Below are positions 8,296 to 34,826 of a DNA stretch of 64,000 bases, piece after piece. The notes under the pieces are model-generated. The model was given only the letters and a program-made list of their open reading frames with translations. It was not told the origin of the DNA and did not search any database. The stretch comes from a virus. Its lineage: Duplodnaviria; Caudoviricetes. Where the stretch lies: positions 1-64,000 of IMG/VR virus record IMGVR_UViG_3300033463_000010; one strand, written 5' to 3'. The stretch's first letter is position 1. Each line of letters begins with the position of its first letter. A program made the position numbers and the translations under genes.

Positions 8296-8392
8296 CGCTA
8301 CCTAACTAACAGATTATTTGTTATATTTCCCTACAAGAGCGACAGCCACGCAAACACCAACTACCCTTGTGTGTAAAAGGAAGTTTACGTCT

Positions 8393-10195
8393 ATGGCTGA
8401 AAATGGACTTGCGGGATTAAGCACCGCAGACTTGTATAAGGCTGCTGCGATAGCCGAAGGCTACGAATCCGTCCCTGTTGACATTGAAACGTTCATTAAC
8501 GACCCGTTCTACATTGGCGAAATCTACGGTGAGGGTCGTGTCTATCCCTATTGGTTGGACAAGCTGAAAAAGCTGTTCCCGAACCCGCTTTACAGCCCGT
8601 TCATTGAAGTTTGCATTACGGGGTGTATCGGTGCGGGTAAGTCCACGGTGTCCATTATCGGGGTCCTTTATGACCTGTATAGGGTGACGCTGCTGAAAGA
8701 CCCGCACAAGAAATTCAAGCTAATCCCGACCACGCCTATCGTGATTACGCTCATTACCGCAACTATGGACCTGGCGGGTGCCGTTCTTGCGGACCAACTT
8801 ATAGACGTTATTGGCTGTTCCCCGTATTTCCGTTCAAAGCTGCTTCCAGGCAAGGGCGACAAGATAGACGAAGAAATGTTTCCCCACCACGTAGGTATCG
8901 CCTACGGTTCCCGTATGCGTCACTCTTTGGGCAAGGCTGTCATTGGGGCTATCATTGACGAAGCGAACTTCCAAAACGCAGTAGCGGACCAGGCGGTGCA
9001 GAACTACAACAGCATCCGTCGTCGTATGTTTTCCCGTTTTATGACTAAAGGCGGTGAAGTGCCCTGCCGTATGTGGGTCGTGTCGTCCCGAAACGAAAGC
9101 ACGTCGTTCCTTGAAAGCCATATTGATGCAGAACGCAACAACCCGAAAGTCGCTATCTTTGAGCCTGCCATTTGGGAAGTCCAGGCACACAAGGGCATTT
9201 ACAGCGGGGCGACCTTCCCCGTCTTTATCGGTTCCGACATTGAGCAGCCGAAAGTCATTACAAGCGACGCAGAACTTGACGACTACCAGGGTCGTGTTAT
9301 CCAGGTCCCCGTTGAATACCGAAAGGACTTTGAGAACAATTTGCCTGGTGCCTTGCAGGATTTGGCGGGCGTGGCTACCCGTAACGGTGTGAACCTAATC
9401 TACAACGTGGAAGCCCTGGATAGGTCAATGTGCCTGGAAAACTGTATGACTACGGACGAACTGCACCTTACCTTGAACGACAACGACCAAATCGCTGACT
9501 TTTACAAGGGGAACTTGCCGAAAGGCAAGTATTACGTCCATTTGGACGGTGGCTTGCGTAGCGACCGTTTCGGCTTTGCTATGAGCCGTGTCACGGAGCA
9601 GATAACGGTCACGACCACTTCTGCTGTTAGCGGTGTGGAAGTGAGCAAGATTAGCCCCGCAGTTGAAACCCCGCTTGTGTTCGGTATAAAGGCGTTGCCA
9701 GGGTCCGAAGTCCCGTTTTGGAAGGTCCGTGTGTTCCTGGTTTACCTGCGTAGCCAGGGCGTGAACATAGCCTTGATTACGTGCGACGGCTACCAATCTG
9801 CCGATATGATGCAGCTACTCACGAAGTTGGGATTTAACGTGAAATACGCTTCTGTGGATAAGACCAAAGACCCGTATTTGAAGTTGAGCAGCAACATTCT
9901 TTTGAGTTTGATTAAAATGGCGAAGTCCCGTATTTTGAGGACCGAACTAATTAACCTGCAAAACCTCCCGAAGAAGATAGACCACCCTGCTACAATCGTC
10001 GTGGACGGGAAGCAGGTTGCGGGTGGCAAGGATATTGCGGACGCTGTGGCTTCTAGTTCCTACGAAGCTATCTGTGCTTCTATGACCCTGGGTGCGTCGT
10101 CGCTGCTCCAAATGCAGCAGTCAAAGCCTACACAAATGACTATGCACCAACGCCAGGAATACGTTATGGAGCATTTCTTCAAAATGAAAAGGTAG
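8393..10195 (+). CDS. terL: Terminase large subunit
   Basis: Walker A GCIGAGKS, Walker B AIIDEAN, nuclease motifs VHLDGG, CDGYQS and KDIADAV. Confidence 0.9.
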   Translation: MAENGLAGLSTADLYKAAAIAEGYESVPVDIETFINDPFYIGEIYGEGRVYPYWLDKLKKLFPNPLYSPFIEVCITGCIGAGKSTVSIIGVLYDLYRVTLLKDPHKKFKLIPTTPIVITLITATMDLAGAVLADQLIDVIGCSPYFRSKLLPGKGDKIDEEMFPHHVGIAYGSRMRHSLGKAVIGAIIDEANFQNAVADQAVQNYNSIRRRMFSRFMTKGGEVPCRMWVVSSRNESTSFLESHIDAERNNPKVAIFEPAIWEVQAHKGIYSGATFPVFIGSDIEQPKVITSDAELDDYQGRVIQVPVEYRKDFENNLPGALQDLAGVATRNGVNLIYNVEALDRSMCLENCMTTDELHLTLNDNDQIADFYKGNLPKGKYYVHLDGGLRSDRFGFAMSRVTEQITVTTTSAVSGVEVSKISPAVETPLVFGIKALPGSEVPFWKVRVFLVYLRSQGVNIALITCDGYQSADMMQLLTKLGFNVKYASVDKTKDPYLKLSSNILLSLIKMAKSRILRTELINLQNLPKKIDHPATIVVDGKQVAGGKDIADAVASSSYEAICASMTLGASSLLQMQQSKPTQMTMHQRQEYVMEHFFKMKR

Positions 10196-26050: not shown

Positions 26051-27491
26051 GTGAACTATTTAAGCGTAGAATCGCTTAAACGGATTGTTTTCGCATCAAC
26101 GGGTTTGCGTGTGCCCCGCTATCACTAGCAGGCATAGTGGCAACTCCCTCCACGGTGGCTTGTTCCAAGCACACGGCTCTCTTTGACGAGCCAATCATCA
26201 AGACTACACGGGCAGAATGAGTGTCCCTGTCTAGCGTATAACCACACGAACACTTGTAGATTCTATCCGCAAGTGTGGGATGGTTTATACATCCGCAGGC
26301 AGGGCACATCTTTGTGGTAGGCTCCCACTTTGAAATCTTGAAACTGCGACCGCTCACTTCCAATGCGACAAGTCGCTGTTTCAATAACCCAAGACAGGAC
26401 GATTGGACCTGTTTTCCGAATAACCCTTTTTGCCAACCCTTAATCTGCTCGTCTTGAAAGTAGATTACATCATAATCGGTCGTTAATTTGTGGTATATCT
26501 TGTTGGCGAAGTCTTTTCGTTTATTCGCCAATCTTTCATACTCACGCCTTAACTGACGCATACACCTGTAATATCGCCTTGACTTCTTCTCGTTCTTCCT
26601 AACTCCACGTTTGTTCAGTTTGCGTGACAGGAATTTTAGATAGTCAGTTTCTCGCACATTGCACTTGTATTTGTCACCGTATGACGTTGTTATGGAATCC
26701 TTTATGCCGAAATCAAGACCTACATTGCGGTTGGTAGGAATCCTTTTGGATTTCGGAAGCATAACGCTAACCTTGACGTAATAGCCACTAGACTTACGGA
26801 CAAGTTTAGCGTCCGCTATTTCAAACTTTTCAAACTGCTGTAATTGGTTAATCCCGTGAACCCGAAGTTTACGGAATCCTGGAATTGTAATCCTGCACCC
26901 GTCTAGGATTTGTGTGTAGCCCGTAATGATGGGCAGGCAATTAACTTCGGACTTGAAGTGTAACGCCCCGACCTTGATGCCCATTTTCTTGGCTTTTGCA
27001 AGGTTCACAATGTCCGTCCTCTTTTGGGCTACTGTTGCCCTGTGGAGAACGGACGGGAGTGTTATAGGGCTTTCAACAGGGTTCTTTTTCTTGTCGTAGT
27101 GGACTACATTCTTGTGTTCAGTGTATTTATAATCAAACAGGGATGCACCCTCGTTCTTTTGCGAGAGCGATAGCATATCGTTGATTACCCACTTTGCTTC
27201 CTTAAAGCATTGGGCTAACTTCGTGAACACTTCTTTAGGATTATGGCGTATGGAAACCTTGAGTTCAAAGACACGGCAGACCTGGGTCTGCCGTCTAGCC
27301 CTTGTTTCGGAAATGGATTCCCGAATCCTGGCTTTAGTATCTTCGCTTCTTACTGTTTCCATAATTTGACTTAAACGAGCATCTATCAATACCTAACTCA
27401 AATATAAATTATTTCGTGGCATAGAAGAAATTTTTTATTTCTTATATTCGTTTAGGAGGTCTAGCCCATATCTTAAAGAGGGCTAGTTACC
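26051..27491 (-). mobile_element. IS200/IS605-family tnpB-only element
   Basis: Right end tttaagcg..cgcttaaat-agTTCAC at 26051; left end hairpin ctagccc..gggctag 27461-27486. Confidence 0.65.
26076..27389 (-). CDS. tnpB: TnpB RNA-guided endonuclease
   Basis: GLDFG, YFQDE, CPACG..CSCG, RDTHSA. Confidence 0.88.
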   Translation of the reverse strand: MIDARLSQIMETVRSEDTKARIRESISETRARRQTQVCRVFELKVSIRHNPKEVFTKLAQCFKEAKWVINDMLSLSQKNEGASLFDYKYTEHKNVVHYDKKKNPVESPITLPSVLHRATVAQKRTDIVNLAKAKKMGIKVGALHFKSEVNCLPIITGYTQILDGCRITIPGFRKLRVHGINQLQQFEKFEIADAKLVRKSSGYYVKVSVMLPKSKRIPTNRNVGLDFGIKDSITTSYGDKYKCNVRETDYLKFLSRKLNKRGVRKNEKKSRRYYRCMRQLRREYERLANKRKDFANKIYHKLTTDYDVIYFQDEQIKGWQKGLFGKQVQSSCLGLLKQRLVALEVSGRSFKISKWEPTTKMCPACGCINHPTLADRIYKCSCGYTLDRDTHSARVVLMIGSSKRAVCLEQATVEGVATMPASDSGAHANPLMRKQSV

Positions 27492-28373: not shown

Positions 28374-28997
28374 ATGGCACGTAAATTTGTCTTTGACATT
28401 GAAACTACTCCCCGTCCTGGAATTATGGACACGTTCTACCCGCAGTGGGCTGAATCCAAATACCCTGGAAAAGAGGGTCAAGCGTTGGAAGATATGGCTG
28501 CACTTCACGCTGAATTTGGTATGATTTGTGCTATCGCCATTGGTAATGCCTTGACAGACGAAGCACCGAAAGTCTATACGGCAGGTAGCGTTGAAGAAGA
28601 AAAGGAACTCATTAAGTCAGTTACCGATATTTTTGATAGCGAAAACGCTGTCCTGGTCGGTCACAACATTAAGGGGTTTGATATTCCTTTTGTTGCGAAG
28701 CGTTTTATGGCACAGGTCGGGTTTGTCCCCCGTGCCCTTAACTTTGGTGGAAAGAAACCCTGGGAAATCCCGCACATTGACACTATGGAGCTTATGCGTT
28801 TCGGTGGCGGTGCGTCTATGTCCCTGCGTTCCGCTTGTTTGATGCTCAATATCGCAGACCCCAAGGGTTCTGTGTGTGGCTCCGAAGTCCCGCAGTTGTT
28901 CCGTGAGGGCAGGACCGCTGAAATCGGTCAGTATTGTGCGGGCGACGTTGTGGCAGAACGTGAACTTTACAGAAAGATTATGAAGGCTTTGTCTTAA
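28374..28997 (+). CDS. 3'-5' exonuclease (DEDD, PolB-type)
   Basis: FDIET, GHNIKGFDIPF, YCAGDV. Confidence 0.9.
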   Translation: MARKFVFDIETTPRPGIMDTFYPQWAESKYPGKEGQALEDMAALHAEFGMICAIAIGNALTDEAPKVYTAGSVEEEKELIKSVTDIFDSENAVLVGHNIKGFDIPFVAKRFMAQVGFVPRALNFGGKKPWEIPHIDTMELMRFGGGASMSLRSACLMLNIADPKGSVCGSEVPQLFREGRTAEIGQYCAGDVVAERELYRKIMKALS

Positions 28998-28999
28998 TT

Positions 29000-29512
29000 A
29001 TGGCTCATAAAATTTACATTGGTATTGACAACGGTACGTCGGGCACTATCGGTTGGATGGGCGACGGCATTGAAACGGGTTTCGCTGAAACCCCTAAATT
29101 TGAAGAACAATCCTACACGAAGGCTGCGAAGAATATCAGCCGTATTAAGCGTTCCGCTTTGCGTGAATTGGTATTGAAGATTTTGGGCGATAATCAGCCG
29201 TGCGAAGCAATCGCAGTCCTGGAACGTCCCCGTGTGAACCCGAAGCAGTTTGTCACGACGCTTTCGGCTATGCGGGCGTTGGAAGCGACGCTTTGTGTTT
29301 TGGAAGATTTGGGCGTTCCGCTTACCTATACGGACTCCCGCCCGTGGCAAAAGAAAATGTTGCCCCAGGGCTTGAAGGGTTCTGCCGAACTCAAGAAAGC
29401 ATCCAAGGAAATAGGTTGTCGTCTTTATCCGCAGTTCGCAGAAGAAATCAAGAAGCATAAGGACGCAGACGGGTTGCTTATTGCTGAATGGGCAAGCAGG
29501 GAGCGTTTATGA
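29000..29512 (+). CDS. RuvC-like Holliday junction resolvase
   Basis: IGIDNG, AVLE, PWQK, DADGLLIA. Confidence 0.85.
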   Translation: MAHKIYIGIDNGTSGTIGWMGDGIETGFAETPKFEEQSYTKAAKNISRIKRSALRELVLKILGDNQPCEAIAVLERPRVNPKQFVTTLSAMRALEATLCVLEDLGVPLTYTDSRPWQKKMLPQGLKGSAELKKASKEIGCRLYPQFAEEIKKHKDADGLLIAEWASRERL

Positions 29513-30480
29513 GTAGTATAATTGAGCAGCAGGATTTGGTGGCGACACCTGTTGACATTGAAACGTTCGTAAAGGACCCGCAGTATCTAGGGAGTATCGT
29601 TGGCGACGGTATTTACCCGTATTGGTTGGAGCAGTTCAAGAAAATCTATGCTGCTTCCGAGGGTTCCCCGTTCTTTCTGTCGGAGTATAGCGAAGTCCTG
29701 TTTGCGGGTGCTTTGGGAGCAGGCAGAAGTTTTGCTGCTATCGTAGGGTTCCTGTATGAACTCTATATCCTTACGCTTGTTAAGGACCCGCACAAGAAAT
29801 GGTCCCTGCTGCCGACTACACCGATTGATTTGGTGGTAATTACTGCGGACGCAAGCAATACGCTTCTTTCCGACCGTATCTTGGACTGCATTAACGTGTC
29901 CCCGTATTTCAAGTCTATCCTGTTGCCGAATAAGGGTTCCGCTCTTGAATCCGATATGTTCCCCAACCACGTGGGTCTTGCTATTGTGGCTAATAATCGG
30001 TTATTGTTGGGACGTGCTATTTTTGGTGCTATCGTGGATGATAGTTGCTTCCCGCAGGAAAAGCCCCTGTGCGATTTATGGTTAAAGAACATATCCGAAC
30101 TATACATTTGTTCGTGGCGACGTGGGTTTTCCAGGTTCGGCTGTGCAGGGACTACACCGCTCCGTATGTGGGTAGCCGTGGCTTCAAGTTCTCCCTTGTA
30201 TGCCCTGGTTGACGAACGTAGAAAACGTGGCTATGGCATATACTATGTTTCTCCGTCTATTTGGGAAACACAGGCGTTTAAGGGTATCTATTGCGGTGAT
30301 ACGTTCTCCGTGTTTGTAGGTTCCGATACGGAACCCCCGAAGATTGTCACGGACATAAACGACCTTGTAAAATACAAGGACAAGGTTATCCAGGTTCCTG
30401 TTGAATACCACCAGGATTTTGAAAAGAATATCCGTGCTGCTGTTCAAGAATTGGCGGGCATTCCCGTCGCAAAGTTTTAA
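29509..30480 (+). CDS. Truncated paralog of the terminase ATPase domain with degenerate motifs
   Basis: Collinear with the TerL N-half (PVDIETF, YPYWL, KDPHKK, PTTPI, IWE.QA.KGIY, QVPVEY); Walker A GAGRS, Walker B VDDS; no nuclease domain. Confidence 0.85.
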   Translation: MSSIIEQQDLVATPVDIETFVKDPQYLGSIVGDGIYPYWLEQFKKIYAASEGSPFFLSEYSEVLFAGALGAGRSFAAIVGFLYELYILTLVKDPHKKWSLLPTTPIDLVVITADASNTLLSDRILDCINVSPYFKSILLPNKGSALESDMFPNHVGLAIVANNRLLLGRAIFGAIVDDSCFPQEKPLCDLWLKNISELYICSWRRGFSRFGCAGTTPLRMWVAVASSSPLYALVDERRKRGYGIYYVSPSIWETQAFKGIYCGDTFSVFVGSDTEPPKIVTDINDLVKYKDKVIQVPVEYHQDFEKNIRAAVQELAGIPVAKF

Positions 30481-30519
30481 TCACAAAACCGCTGTGTGTC
30501 ACAGCAAAGGAAAACTAAA

Positions 30520-31098
30520 ATGGCTACTAAAAAGGCTGCTCCGAAAACTGAAACCAAAGTCGCACCGAAAGTAAAGGTGGTCGCCCCGAAGAAGGACGTG
30601 AAGTCTGCTCCGAAGAAAGACGTTAAGGCTGTCGCTCCGAAGAAGACCGCTCCGAAGATTATGGCGAAGTTGGTTCCCGCCAAGGCTGATGCTGCTCCGA
30701 AGCAGCAGGACCAGGGCTACGTTGTCCTGGAACACGACCTGCTTACGCAGAACTACACGATGATTATCCACGAAGCGGATTACAAGTTTAACGCTCCGCA
30801 CCACTTCAAGGTTATTGCTGCGAAGCCCGACACAGAGGGCGAACATAAGGGGCAGAACCGTGTAATCGCCATTGTTAATTTCCAGGAAGGACCGATTAAG
30901 GAAAATGGCGTGAATGGCGTTGCAAATGAAGATTTGCTCGGTATGGTCCTTGCCCGACTTGAAGGCTTCCAAAACAGCGAATACAAGTGCCGTGAAAACG
31001 CTTGTGCCATTACGAAGATTGAAGAAGCCCTTATGTGGCTCCGCAAGAGAACTAACGCCCGTGTGAAGCGTGGCGTGGAAGGCACTTCCAAGGTCTAA
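30520..31098 (+). CDS. tad1: Tad1-family anti-Thoeris nucleotide sponge with Lys/Ala/Pro-rich N-terminal extension
   Basis: NAPHHF..VNFQEGPIKENGVNGV.NEDL..RLE.FQ..CRENA.AITK.EEAL.WLRKRT..RGVEGT signature. Confidence 0.88.
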   Translation: MATKKAAPKTETKVAPKVKVVAPKKDVKSAPKKDVKAVAPKKTAPKIMAKLVPAKADAAPKQQDQGYVVLEHDLLTQNYTMIIHEADYKFNAPHHFKVIAAKPDTEGEHKGQNRVIAIVNFQEGPIKENGVNGVANEDLLGMVLARLEGFQNSEYKCRENACAITKIEEALMWLRKRTNARVKRGVEGTSKV

Positions 31099-31112: not shown

Positions 31113-31406
31113 ATGGCTAAAAAGAACGTGAAGAAACAGGCTCCGAAAAAGAGCCTTGCAGAAGTTATCGTTGACCTTGAACTTGAATTTGACGTAGTTG
31201 CAGGCAACGTAGAAAGACTTGACGCTGCCCTTAATCGTGGCGATAGTTTCGCCAAGGAAGTCGGGGACGAACAATACAATCTGCTTTGCCGTCAATTCAA
31301 TGCTATGGTTGAATATCGTGACACGTTGGGCATTCGCCTTGCCTTGCTCCGTCGTAAGAACGCAAAGGCTATTGAAGACGCTGCACTTGCAAAGGAGGGC
31401 AAGTAA
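31113..31406 (+). CDS. crAss001_48-like small helical protein
   Basis: LL.RQ..AM..Y...L..RL motif. Confidence 0.6.
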   Translation: MAKKNVKKQAPKKSLAEVIVDLELEFDVVAGNVERLDAALNRGDSFAKEVGDEQYNLLCRQFNAMVEYRDTLGIRLALLRRKNAKAIEDAALAKEGK

Positions 31407-34052: not shown

Positions 34053-34826
34053 ATGCGTATAACGAAAGTAAATCAAAGAATTTCACGACTTGACGAACAG
34101 TTGAGCAAACTGCTCTATTTGAAAGAACACCCGAAGCGTCGTCTTCACGAATCCTTGTCCGATTGGGCAGACCGTGAAGTGCAAATTGCCTGTAAGGGTG
34201 CGGACGGCTATGGTGCAGGCTGCTATCAGTCGGCATTGAAAGCGTTCCGTTCTCTTATGGACGACGGGCATAGTGGATTTTCTATCGGCTGCACGAAAGC
34301 AATCTTGAACAGATTGATTGACGGCAAGCCCCTTACGCCTATCAATGACGTGGACGACGAATGGAATAGTGAATCCGATTTTTATGGGGAAGATGGGCAT
34401 TATCAGCACAAACGTGCGTCGTCTGTATTTAAGACGGTGAACCCCGACGGCTCCGTGGAATATAGCGACGTTGACAGAACCGTGTTGGTTGAAGTTGCCG
34501 ACGACGGCACAGAAACAACGTGGCATAGCGGGTTAGCGTCCAAACTTGTAAATGAAATTGTAGGACCGATAACGTTCCCGTATTACCCTAGTGCTAAACC
34601 CTACAAGGTTTATGCCCACCAATTTGATTCTGTGAATGCAGAAGTAGGTTGTTTTGATACGTCGCATATCTTGAAAATCGTGGACCCCGACGGAAACGAA
34701 ATTGATTGTGAACGTTTCTATGTTGAAAGTGGGGACAGGGGCTTCCAGGAAGTAGGACGTGAAGAATACGCTGCACGTGTTTTGTCATACAGAAATGCCC
34801 TCAAATCCCGTGTAGCAAATAAATAA
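34053..34826 (+). CDS. Conserved phage protein with basic N-terminal leader
   Basis: GHSGFS..RLIDGKPLTPI..DEW..YQHKR.S.VFK; leader ends RRLHES. Confidence 0.65.
   Translation: MRITKVNQRISRLDEQLSKLLYLKEHPKRRLHESLSDWADREVQIACKGADGYGAGCYQSALKAFRSLMDDGHSGFSIGCTKAILNRLIDGKPLTPINDVDDEWNSESDFYGEDGHYQHKRASSVFKTVNPDGSVEYSDVDRTVLVEVADDGTETTWHSGLASKLVNEIVGPITFPYYPSAKPYKVYAHQFDSVNAEVGCFDTSHILKIVDPDGNEIDCERFYVESGDRGFQEVGREEYAARVLSYRNALKSRVANK

Follow-up and report, generated by a model that had tools for sequence, protein, structure and literature searches.

The large terminase (TerL) is the best-documented protein pattern sensed by bacterial NLR-like immunity. Its ATPase domain by itself is a strong activator of EcAvs2 and of every Upx homolog tested (Evans et al., Nat Commun 2026, PMC13601566), and the ATP bound to the terminase, with its Mg2+ shell, is touched by EcAvs2 via a bridging ATP (PMC13601566). 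Avs2 is also engaged by TerL-ATPase-like proteins that are not terminases, T4 vs.8 and Ksap2 (PMC13601566; PMC11564622). The stand-alone vs.8 protein, in which the Walker motifs are intact, is toxic together with EcAvs2, and the authors speculate that such proteins may be anti-defense factors that Avs2 learned to sense (PMC13601566). Phages that keep an enzymatically dead second copy of the sensed domain are natural experiments in managing an unavoidable immune signature. Here, we describe a short paralog of the TerL ATPase domain (a "pseudo-terminase" of 323 aa, positions 29509–30480, + strand) in the first 64 kb, referred to as the window, of virus record IMGVR_UViG_3300033463_000010. This record of 213,231 bp is rated 97% complete and derives from an uncultured jumbo phage.

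The T4 vs.8 protein (219 aa) resembles the paralog in being phage-encoded, devoid of a nuclease domain, homologous to the ATPase domain of the TerL of its own phage and located away from the packaging genes (PMC13601566). It differs in its canonical Walker A and B motifs, in its activation of EcAvs2 and in its length (219 versus 323 aa), and no sequence relation between vs.8 and the paralog family was detectable (hhalign probability of 0.9%). Judged by sequence, the paralog is an analog of vs.8 with an independent origin and not a member of the vs.8 type. A short open reading frame (ORF) of phage 186 (coding sequence 1215–1961, annotated as "terminase large subunit; similar to Orf12") is likewise a short extra copy of the ATPase part of TerL, but is situated inside the packaging operon, between terminase and portal, and belongs to a different TerL lineage. 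Packaging ATPases of the phi29 gp16 type have a similar size (about 330 aa) and no nuclease domain either, but these are active and essential motors, whereas the paralog has lost the catalytic residues and is found alongside a complete TerL. Taken together with vs.8 and the phage 186 ORF, the family points to a repeated emergence of stand-alone terminase-ATPase paralogs; if this is true, the class is worth testing as decoys, triggers or packaging regulators.

The family described here is a new, independent variant of this little-studied kind of protein. It is well populated and clearly selected, carries the clean signature that catalytic residues alone are lost, and adds a new twist, in that about half of its members have a membrane tail anchor. 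As a description drawn from sequence and structural models, a clade-wide, selected, catalytically dead and nuclease-less paralog of the TerL ATPase is solid. We tentatively favor, with a probability of about 0.4, a binding-only look-alike of TerL that is used in phage-host or phage-phage conflict, because the gene evolves fast, is occasionally lost and lies in a variable region beside anti-defense sponge genes.

A short paralog of the terminase ATPase domain

The only full-length TerL of the phage, and the parent of the paralog, is encoded at 8390–10195 (+). The ORF opens at TTG 8318, but TerL homologs align from Met25 (position 8390), and for this reason 8390 is probably the start of the gene. 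The paralog is collinear with the N-terminal half of ORF 8318–10195, with 47% identity over 315 aa (BLASTP, E 3e-92), in agreement with the initial annotation, which had also pointed to its remoteness from the packaging genes (terL lies 19 kb away). No further copies of TerL were found in a tblastn search of the window, and the whole genome contains just these two TerL-like places.

Several lines of comparison bear on the identity of the long ORF. Annotated TerLs of Rhizobium jumbo phages share 37% identity with it over 90% of its length, and at a greater distance it matches TerLs of Maribacter, Vibrio and other phages. An AF2 model of the protein (36 homologs, pLDDT 86) yielded full-length large terminases as all of the top 26 Foldseek matches, with HK97 at E 1.8e-15; T4 gp17, Sf6, D6E and PhiV-1 are also among the matches, and the C-terminal half of the model matches the nuclease domain of the G20c terminase. 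By homology, by predicted structure and by the inteins that relatives carry at its P-loop (below), this ORF encodes a genuine TerL. No significant family emerged from Pfam, PHROGs, PADLOC and NCBIfam for either the paralog or TerL, and searches of the PDB by sequence and by profile gave no match. Precomputed matches to PF27249 (MJ0330_N, an N-terminal P-loop domain) exist for three proteins of the family (P0001, which is 99% identical, P0003 and P0011), and this domain is carried by 91% of the members in one Atlas cluster (score 0.97).

Inteins are present in-frame at the P-loop of terL in relatives of the phage. They are of the LAGLIDADG type in G001 (L008:175-3081, a frame of 969 aa) and of the HNH type in G003 (L024:1594-4578, 995 aa) and G006 (992 aa), and occur on several other contigs too; neither the terL of the window nor any of the short paralogs contains one. 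A split or intron-interrupted terL was ruled out as an explanation for the short gene by the complete TerL and by the separate clade formed by the short genes. Directly downstream of terL lies a PD-(D/E)XK exonuclease gene (phrog_298, PF12705; 10217–11158, +), and no small terminase gene was recognizable beside terL.

The ORF of the paralog (29509–30480) is intact and extends as far as the ATPase-domain boundary (ELAGIPVAKF). The stop codon is at 30478–30480, the next gene, which encodes a Tad1-like protein, starts at 30496, and nothing nuclease-like follows, so that the nuclease domain is missing, as had been proposed. The AF2 model of the paralog is confident (pLDDT 90, pTM 0.90), and its best Foldseek matches are terminases or terminase ATPase domains (PhiV-1, HK97, T4 gp17, Sf6, D6E, and P74-26). 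The paralog is accordingly modeled with the ASCE P-loop ATPase fold of the TerL type, the same as that of its own parent and of the solved terminases HK97, T4 gp17, Sf6 gp2, D6E and PhiV-1, but without the RNase H-fold nuclease.

Both nucleotide-binding motifs are degenerate, and the initial annotation had read them exactly. The Walker A motif, G67-A-L-G-A-G-R73-S74 (29707–29730, +), keeps the P-loop glycines and carries an arginine in place of the lysine (GAGKS to GAGRS). In the Walker B motif, A-I-V-D177-D178 (30028–30042, +), the catalytic glutamate is replaced by an aspartate (IIDE to IVDD). The Walker A lysine is present in all 8 TerLs of the clade and is invariant in 36 diverse TerLs (28–63% identity) that served as a reference set, whereas the short paralogs have an arginine (22/29) or a lysine (7/29), with a cysteine in one further member. 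The D-E pair of Walker B is found in 8/8 TerLs of the clade versus 0/29 short paralogs; the position of the catalytic glutamate is occupied by glutamate in only 2/29, and otherwise by D, T, L, C, A or S. The corresponding conservative changes in T4 gp17, K166R and E256D, reportedly abolish its function.

The remainder of the domain is well preserved. Seventeen residues of the N-terminal domain are invariant in the reference set, and 14 of these are retained in the short paralogs: 13 without exception (29/29) and one in 27/29. Only K84 (the Walker A lysine), E191 (the catalytic glutamate) and S215 (the serine of the RRxxSRF helix) vary substantially. This pattern is the signature of a pseudoenzyme family, apparently selected for its fold and surfaces and not for hydrolysis. 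With the P-loop glycines and the upstream YPYW block invariant, the proteins may still bind nucleotide. As the hhalign alignments of the family to T4 gp17 and to vs.8 were not significant, the adenine-binding motif, the coupling motif and the arginine finger are not mappable by homology.

The same residues bear on the possibility that the paralog is a still-active NTPase, which would use the arginine or lysine of the P-loop and an alternative acidic residue, and would serve replication or recombination as a DNA translocase or helicase-like factor. The conserved glycine scaffold and YPYW block are in line with such an activity, as are the seven members that keep GK[ST] together with D-D at Walker B, and the upstream genes function in DNA metabolism. 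The D-E pair, however, is absent from every short paralog and the Walker A lysine from most, and variation of this kind at the catalytic site is unexpected under selection for hydrolysis. We therefore consider an active enzyme quite unlikely.

Family, selection and natural deletion

A search of 5.8 billion proteins identified 28 short homologs of 308–367 aa with 40–99% identity, several of which are encoded on contigs of 219–230 kb. When 1.84 billion representatives were searched exhaustively with a profile, about ten short clusters emerged at the 50% level (308–392 aa), below which exclusively full-length or intein-bearing TerLs were found. In a maximum-likelihood tree of 29 short proteins, 8 TerLs of the clade and, as outgroup, 5 distant TerLs (30% identical), all short proteins form one clade (SH-aLRT 98) that is sister to the TerLs of the clade (88), with the distant TerLs outside. 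The phylogeny thus gives good support to a single duplication, by which the ancestor of these ~215–230-kb phages gained a second copy of the terminase ATPase domain, but it does not put this beyond doubt, since the tree was made with a quick search and contains some long branches.

Pairwise comparisons of the paralog gave dN/dS values of 0.09 (L003), 0.14 (G001) and 0.19 (L005), similar to the 0.11–0.15 of the neighboring Tad1-like gene and higher than the 0.02–0.035 of neighboring core genes. On the basis of these values, the paralog is judged to be under purifying selection. A pseudogene undergoing neutral decay, the outcome that the initial annotation had wished to see examined by dN/dS, was ruled out by these values and the integrity of the ORF, and an assembly artifact by the occurrence of the gene in many independent assemblies. 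It is accordingly extremely improbable that the gene is functionless, whether as a decaying duplicate or as an artifact of annotation or assembly. Its loss in one relative and the absence of a family profile that matches it would fit such an explanation, but at least 28 distinct homologs have an intact ORF, the fold is confidently predicted and nearly all TerL-invariant residues are kept.

The paralog evolves faster than its parent. Between the window and G001 the N-terminal part of TerL is 95% identical and the short gene 91%; the corresponding values are 74 and 47% for the window and G002, 75 and 44% for the window and G005, and 93 and 40% for G002 and G005. Judged by these pairs, the paralog diverges several-fold faster than TerL. 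Among the syntenic neighbors on the replication side that are shared with relatives, it is always the least conserved (42–46% versus 55–92%). Exchange of the paralog as a specific horizontal cassette was considered and was not demonstrable, as the entire region is mosaic between genomes.

A C-terminal hydrophobic tail of roughly 20 residues, which follows a short linker, is found in 21/43 family members (P0011, P0013-P0017, P0020, P0021, P0023-P0027, and P0029; L006, L011, L018, L020, L022, and L034; G002). These members constitute one subclade of the tree; the subclade of the window has no tail. The tail is a predicted membrane anchor, which in about half of the family takes the place that the nuclease domain has in TerL.

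The initial annotation had regarded absence from close relatives as evidence against its interpretation. The gene is conserved as a family of at least 28 short homologs, and is missing from one close relative, G003 (215,310 bp, 100% complete), of which the TerL and the RuvC-like protein are about 86–89% and 88% identical, respectively, to those of the window. No ATPase-like domain follows the RuvC-like gene in this genome. In its place is a remnant ORF of 66 codons (L070:6934-7137), which overlaps the RuvC stop codon (ATGA) and consists of the start codon fused in frame to the linker and transmembrane (TM) tail of a P0011-type paralog. From its sequence, this remnant is best read as a clean internal deletion of the ATPase-like domain, and the domain is therefore dispensable for at least one natural genome. 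This speaks against an essential function, whereas an accessory one is compatible with it.

Rate, tail and deletion together bear on a role of the paralog as a regulator or non-catalytic subunit of the packaging machinery of the phage itself. Through surfaces shared with TerL, the dead domain would attach to TerL, to the portal or to a small-terminase-like partner, and would tune or delay packaging or, when anchored in the membrane, hold portals or proheads there. This would account for the retention of the non-catalytic TerL-invariant residues, including the N-terminal PVDIETF...YPYW block and the invariant arginine of the RRxxSRF helix, and for the presence of the gene in 8/9 syntenic relatives. 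The tail in half of the family also recalls the initiation of T4 proheads, which is membrane-associated. On the other hand, a packaging regulator is not expected to evolve much faster than the TerL that it must fit (compare G002 and G005) or to be deleted from a complete genome such as G003; the gene lies among replication and anti-defense genes rather than structural genes; and a non-hydrolyzing subunit is expected to poison a ring motor. Such a role in packaging is possible, if somewhat unlikely.

Gene neighborhood and the RuvC-like resolvase

The paralog is preceded by genes for a 3'-5' exonuclease (DNA_pol_B_exo2; 28374–28997, +; PF10108, E 1.2e-16, and synteny) and a RuvC-like Holliday-junction resolvase of 170 aa (29000–29512, +; phrog_1770, E 1.2e-12). 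Its ATG overlaps the TGA of the RuvC-like gene (ATGA), as read directly from the sequence and as described in the initial annotation, and a GGGAG motif is located 8 nt upstream of the start. The run of exonuclease, RuvC-like gene and paralog is kept across eight relatives (for instance G001, G002, G005, and the contigs behind L005, L006, L011, and L012). In all eight of the relatives examined the RuvC-like gene is upstream of the paralog, with an extra ORF or insert between the two in three of them: an ORF of 80 aa in L012 and G005, and an insert of ~670 bp in G001, the 91%-identical relative, which contains an ORF of ~200 aa (L074:7605-8277). Coupling of the ATGA or near-ATGA kind occurs in the window, L005, L006, and L007.

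This arrangement raises the possibility that the paralog is the partner of the adjacent resolvase, the ATPase-like protein and the RNase H-fold nuclease forming a two-piece terminase-like enzyme that would locate and resolve branched replicative DNA before or during packaging. The constant position of the RuvC-like gene and the ATGA-type coupling speak for such a pair, and T4 endonuclease VII is known to be associated with the packaging machine. Adjacency is nevertheless of little weight here, since these phages are collinear throughout the region. The RuvC-like gene persists in G003, from which the paralog is deleted, the two genes are separated in L012, G005 and G001, and their identities to the window do not track each other (RuvC versus paralog, 80% versus 42% in L011 and 58% versus 62% in L005). 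The RuvC-like protein, moreover, has no sequence similarity to the nuclease domain of TerL. We regard the partnership as improbable. For the same lack of similarity, the RuvC-like gene and the paralog are not recognizable as a permuted split of a second TerL.

Downstream of the paralog, three families of signal sponges or Thoeris inhibitors are encoded within 4.3 kb. The first gene (30496–31098, +) encodes a sponge-like protein of the Tad1/Acb2 family with an N-terminal extension of ~70 aa that is rich in Lys, Ala and Pro (phrog_2428, E 6.5e-44; PF24729, E 5.8e-6, with 26.8 bits against a cut-off of 27). It is followed by a homolog of the anti-Thoeris sponge Sequestin (crAss001_48-related; 31113–31406, +; PF21825, E 3.3e-9), a family experimentally shown to sequester 3'cADPR (bioRxiv 10.1101/2025.07.12.664507). 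A homolog of Tad3, an inhibitor of type I Thoeris (34053–34826, +; PF25185, E 1.5e-29), lies 3.6 kb off. The Tad1/Acb2-like and Sequestin genes are downstream of the paralog in the window, G001, L005, L006, and G002. The paralog thus sits where a recombination module meets a variable stretch that often holds anti-Thoeris sponges. The proposed pairing of the paralog with tad1 holds as a description of the window, in which the Tad1/Acb2-family gene is the next one downstream, but does not stand as a conserved link. A strict functional link was rejected, since Tad1 is missing next to the paralog in L011, L012 and G005 and is present in G003 despite the deletion of the paralog.

Upstream of this region the window also carries a TnpB-like gene (26076–27389, -; 437 aa, with OrfB_IS605 and Cas12f1-like TNB domains). 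It is part of an insertion of ~1.66 kb between genes of 189 aa and 127 aa; L005 has ~110 bp at that spot.

Terminase sensing and a possible role in conflict

The look-alike that we favor goes back to an old duplication of the TerL ATPase domain, after which the nuclease domain, the Walker A lysine and the catalytic glutamate were lost, and the fold, the P-loop glycines and nearly all other TerL-invariant residues retained in a gene that can itself be lost. Its product would be unable to serve as a packaging motor. It would bind a partner that also recognizes the TerL ATPase domain, possibly in a nucleotide-bound state without hydrolysis, and as an accessory protein would titrate or divert this TerL-binding factor. 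Candidate factors are a host immune sensor or inhibitor, or the packaging-interference protein of a rival mobile element. About half of the family would act from the inner membrane, via the C-terminal tail anchor.

Several observations weigh against this explanation. The region as a whole is mosaic, and fast divergence is therefore not peculiar to the paralog. Some family members, those with GK[ST], may still hydrolyze ATP, to judge from their motifs. The anti-defense neighbors are absent from L011, L012 and G005, all of which keep the paralog. Its retention in 8/9 syntenic relatives, always downstream of the exonuclease and RuvC-like genes and often with translational coupling, would likewise be in keeping with a function in DNA metabolism or packaging. 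By analogy, a mimic of the N-terminal part of TerL is at least as likely to trigger sensors of the Avs2/Upx type as to block them, because TerL ATPase domains alone activate EcAvs2 and Upx, and as a mimic the protein could thus be a liability.

The initial annotation had interpreted the paralog as a possible decoy for terminase sensors. What stands of this interpretation is a selected, non-decaying and catalytically degenerate paralog at the edge of a cluster of anti-defense sponges; the linkage to Tad1 does not. Such a mimic can plausibly engage Avs2/Upx-type sensors, with activation and not blockade as the default expectation from the known cases, and it is speculation that a degenerate active site or a membrane tether could turn activation into another outcome. 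A specific decoy for Avs1-3 is a possible but unsupported sub-case of the conflict reading, and accounts for roughly one third of the probability that we give to the latter. A true decoy would be a nucleotide-locked, hydrolysis-dead copy of the ATPase, either soluble or tethered to the inner membrane, that fills the sensor pocket of Avs1-3-like or Upx-like receptors or of TerL-directed inhibitors, blocks productive oligomerization and shields the real terminase; the same trick would have evolved independently in the lineages of T4 vs.8 and phage 186. We consider this unlikely. The literature searched contained no terminase decoy, no Avs decoy of this sort and no account of this family as a second terminase copy.

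The direct experimental value of the window copy is limited, as the phage is uncultured. Many of the related contigs apparently derive from gut or rumen-type metagenomes, and one relative's contig has a gene for a Fib_succ_major-domain protein (Fibrobacter succinogenes major paralogous domain; L011:10017-10733), which together provide a hint about the host.

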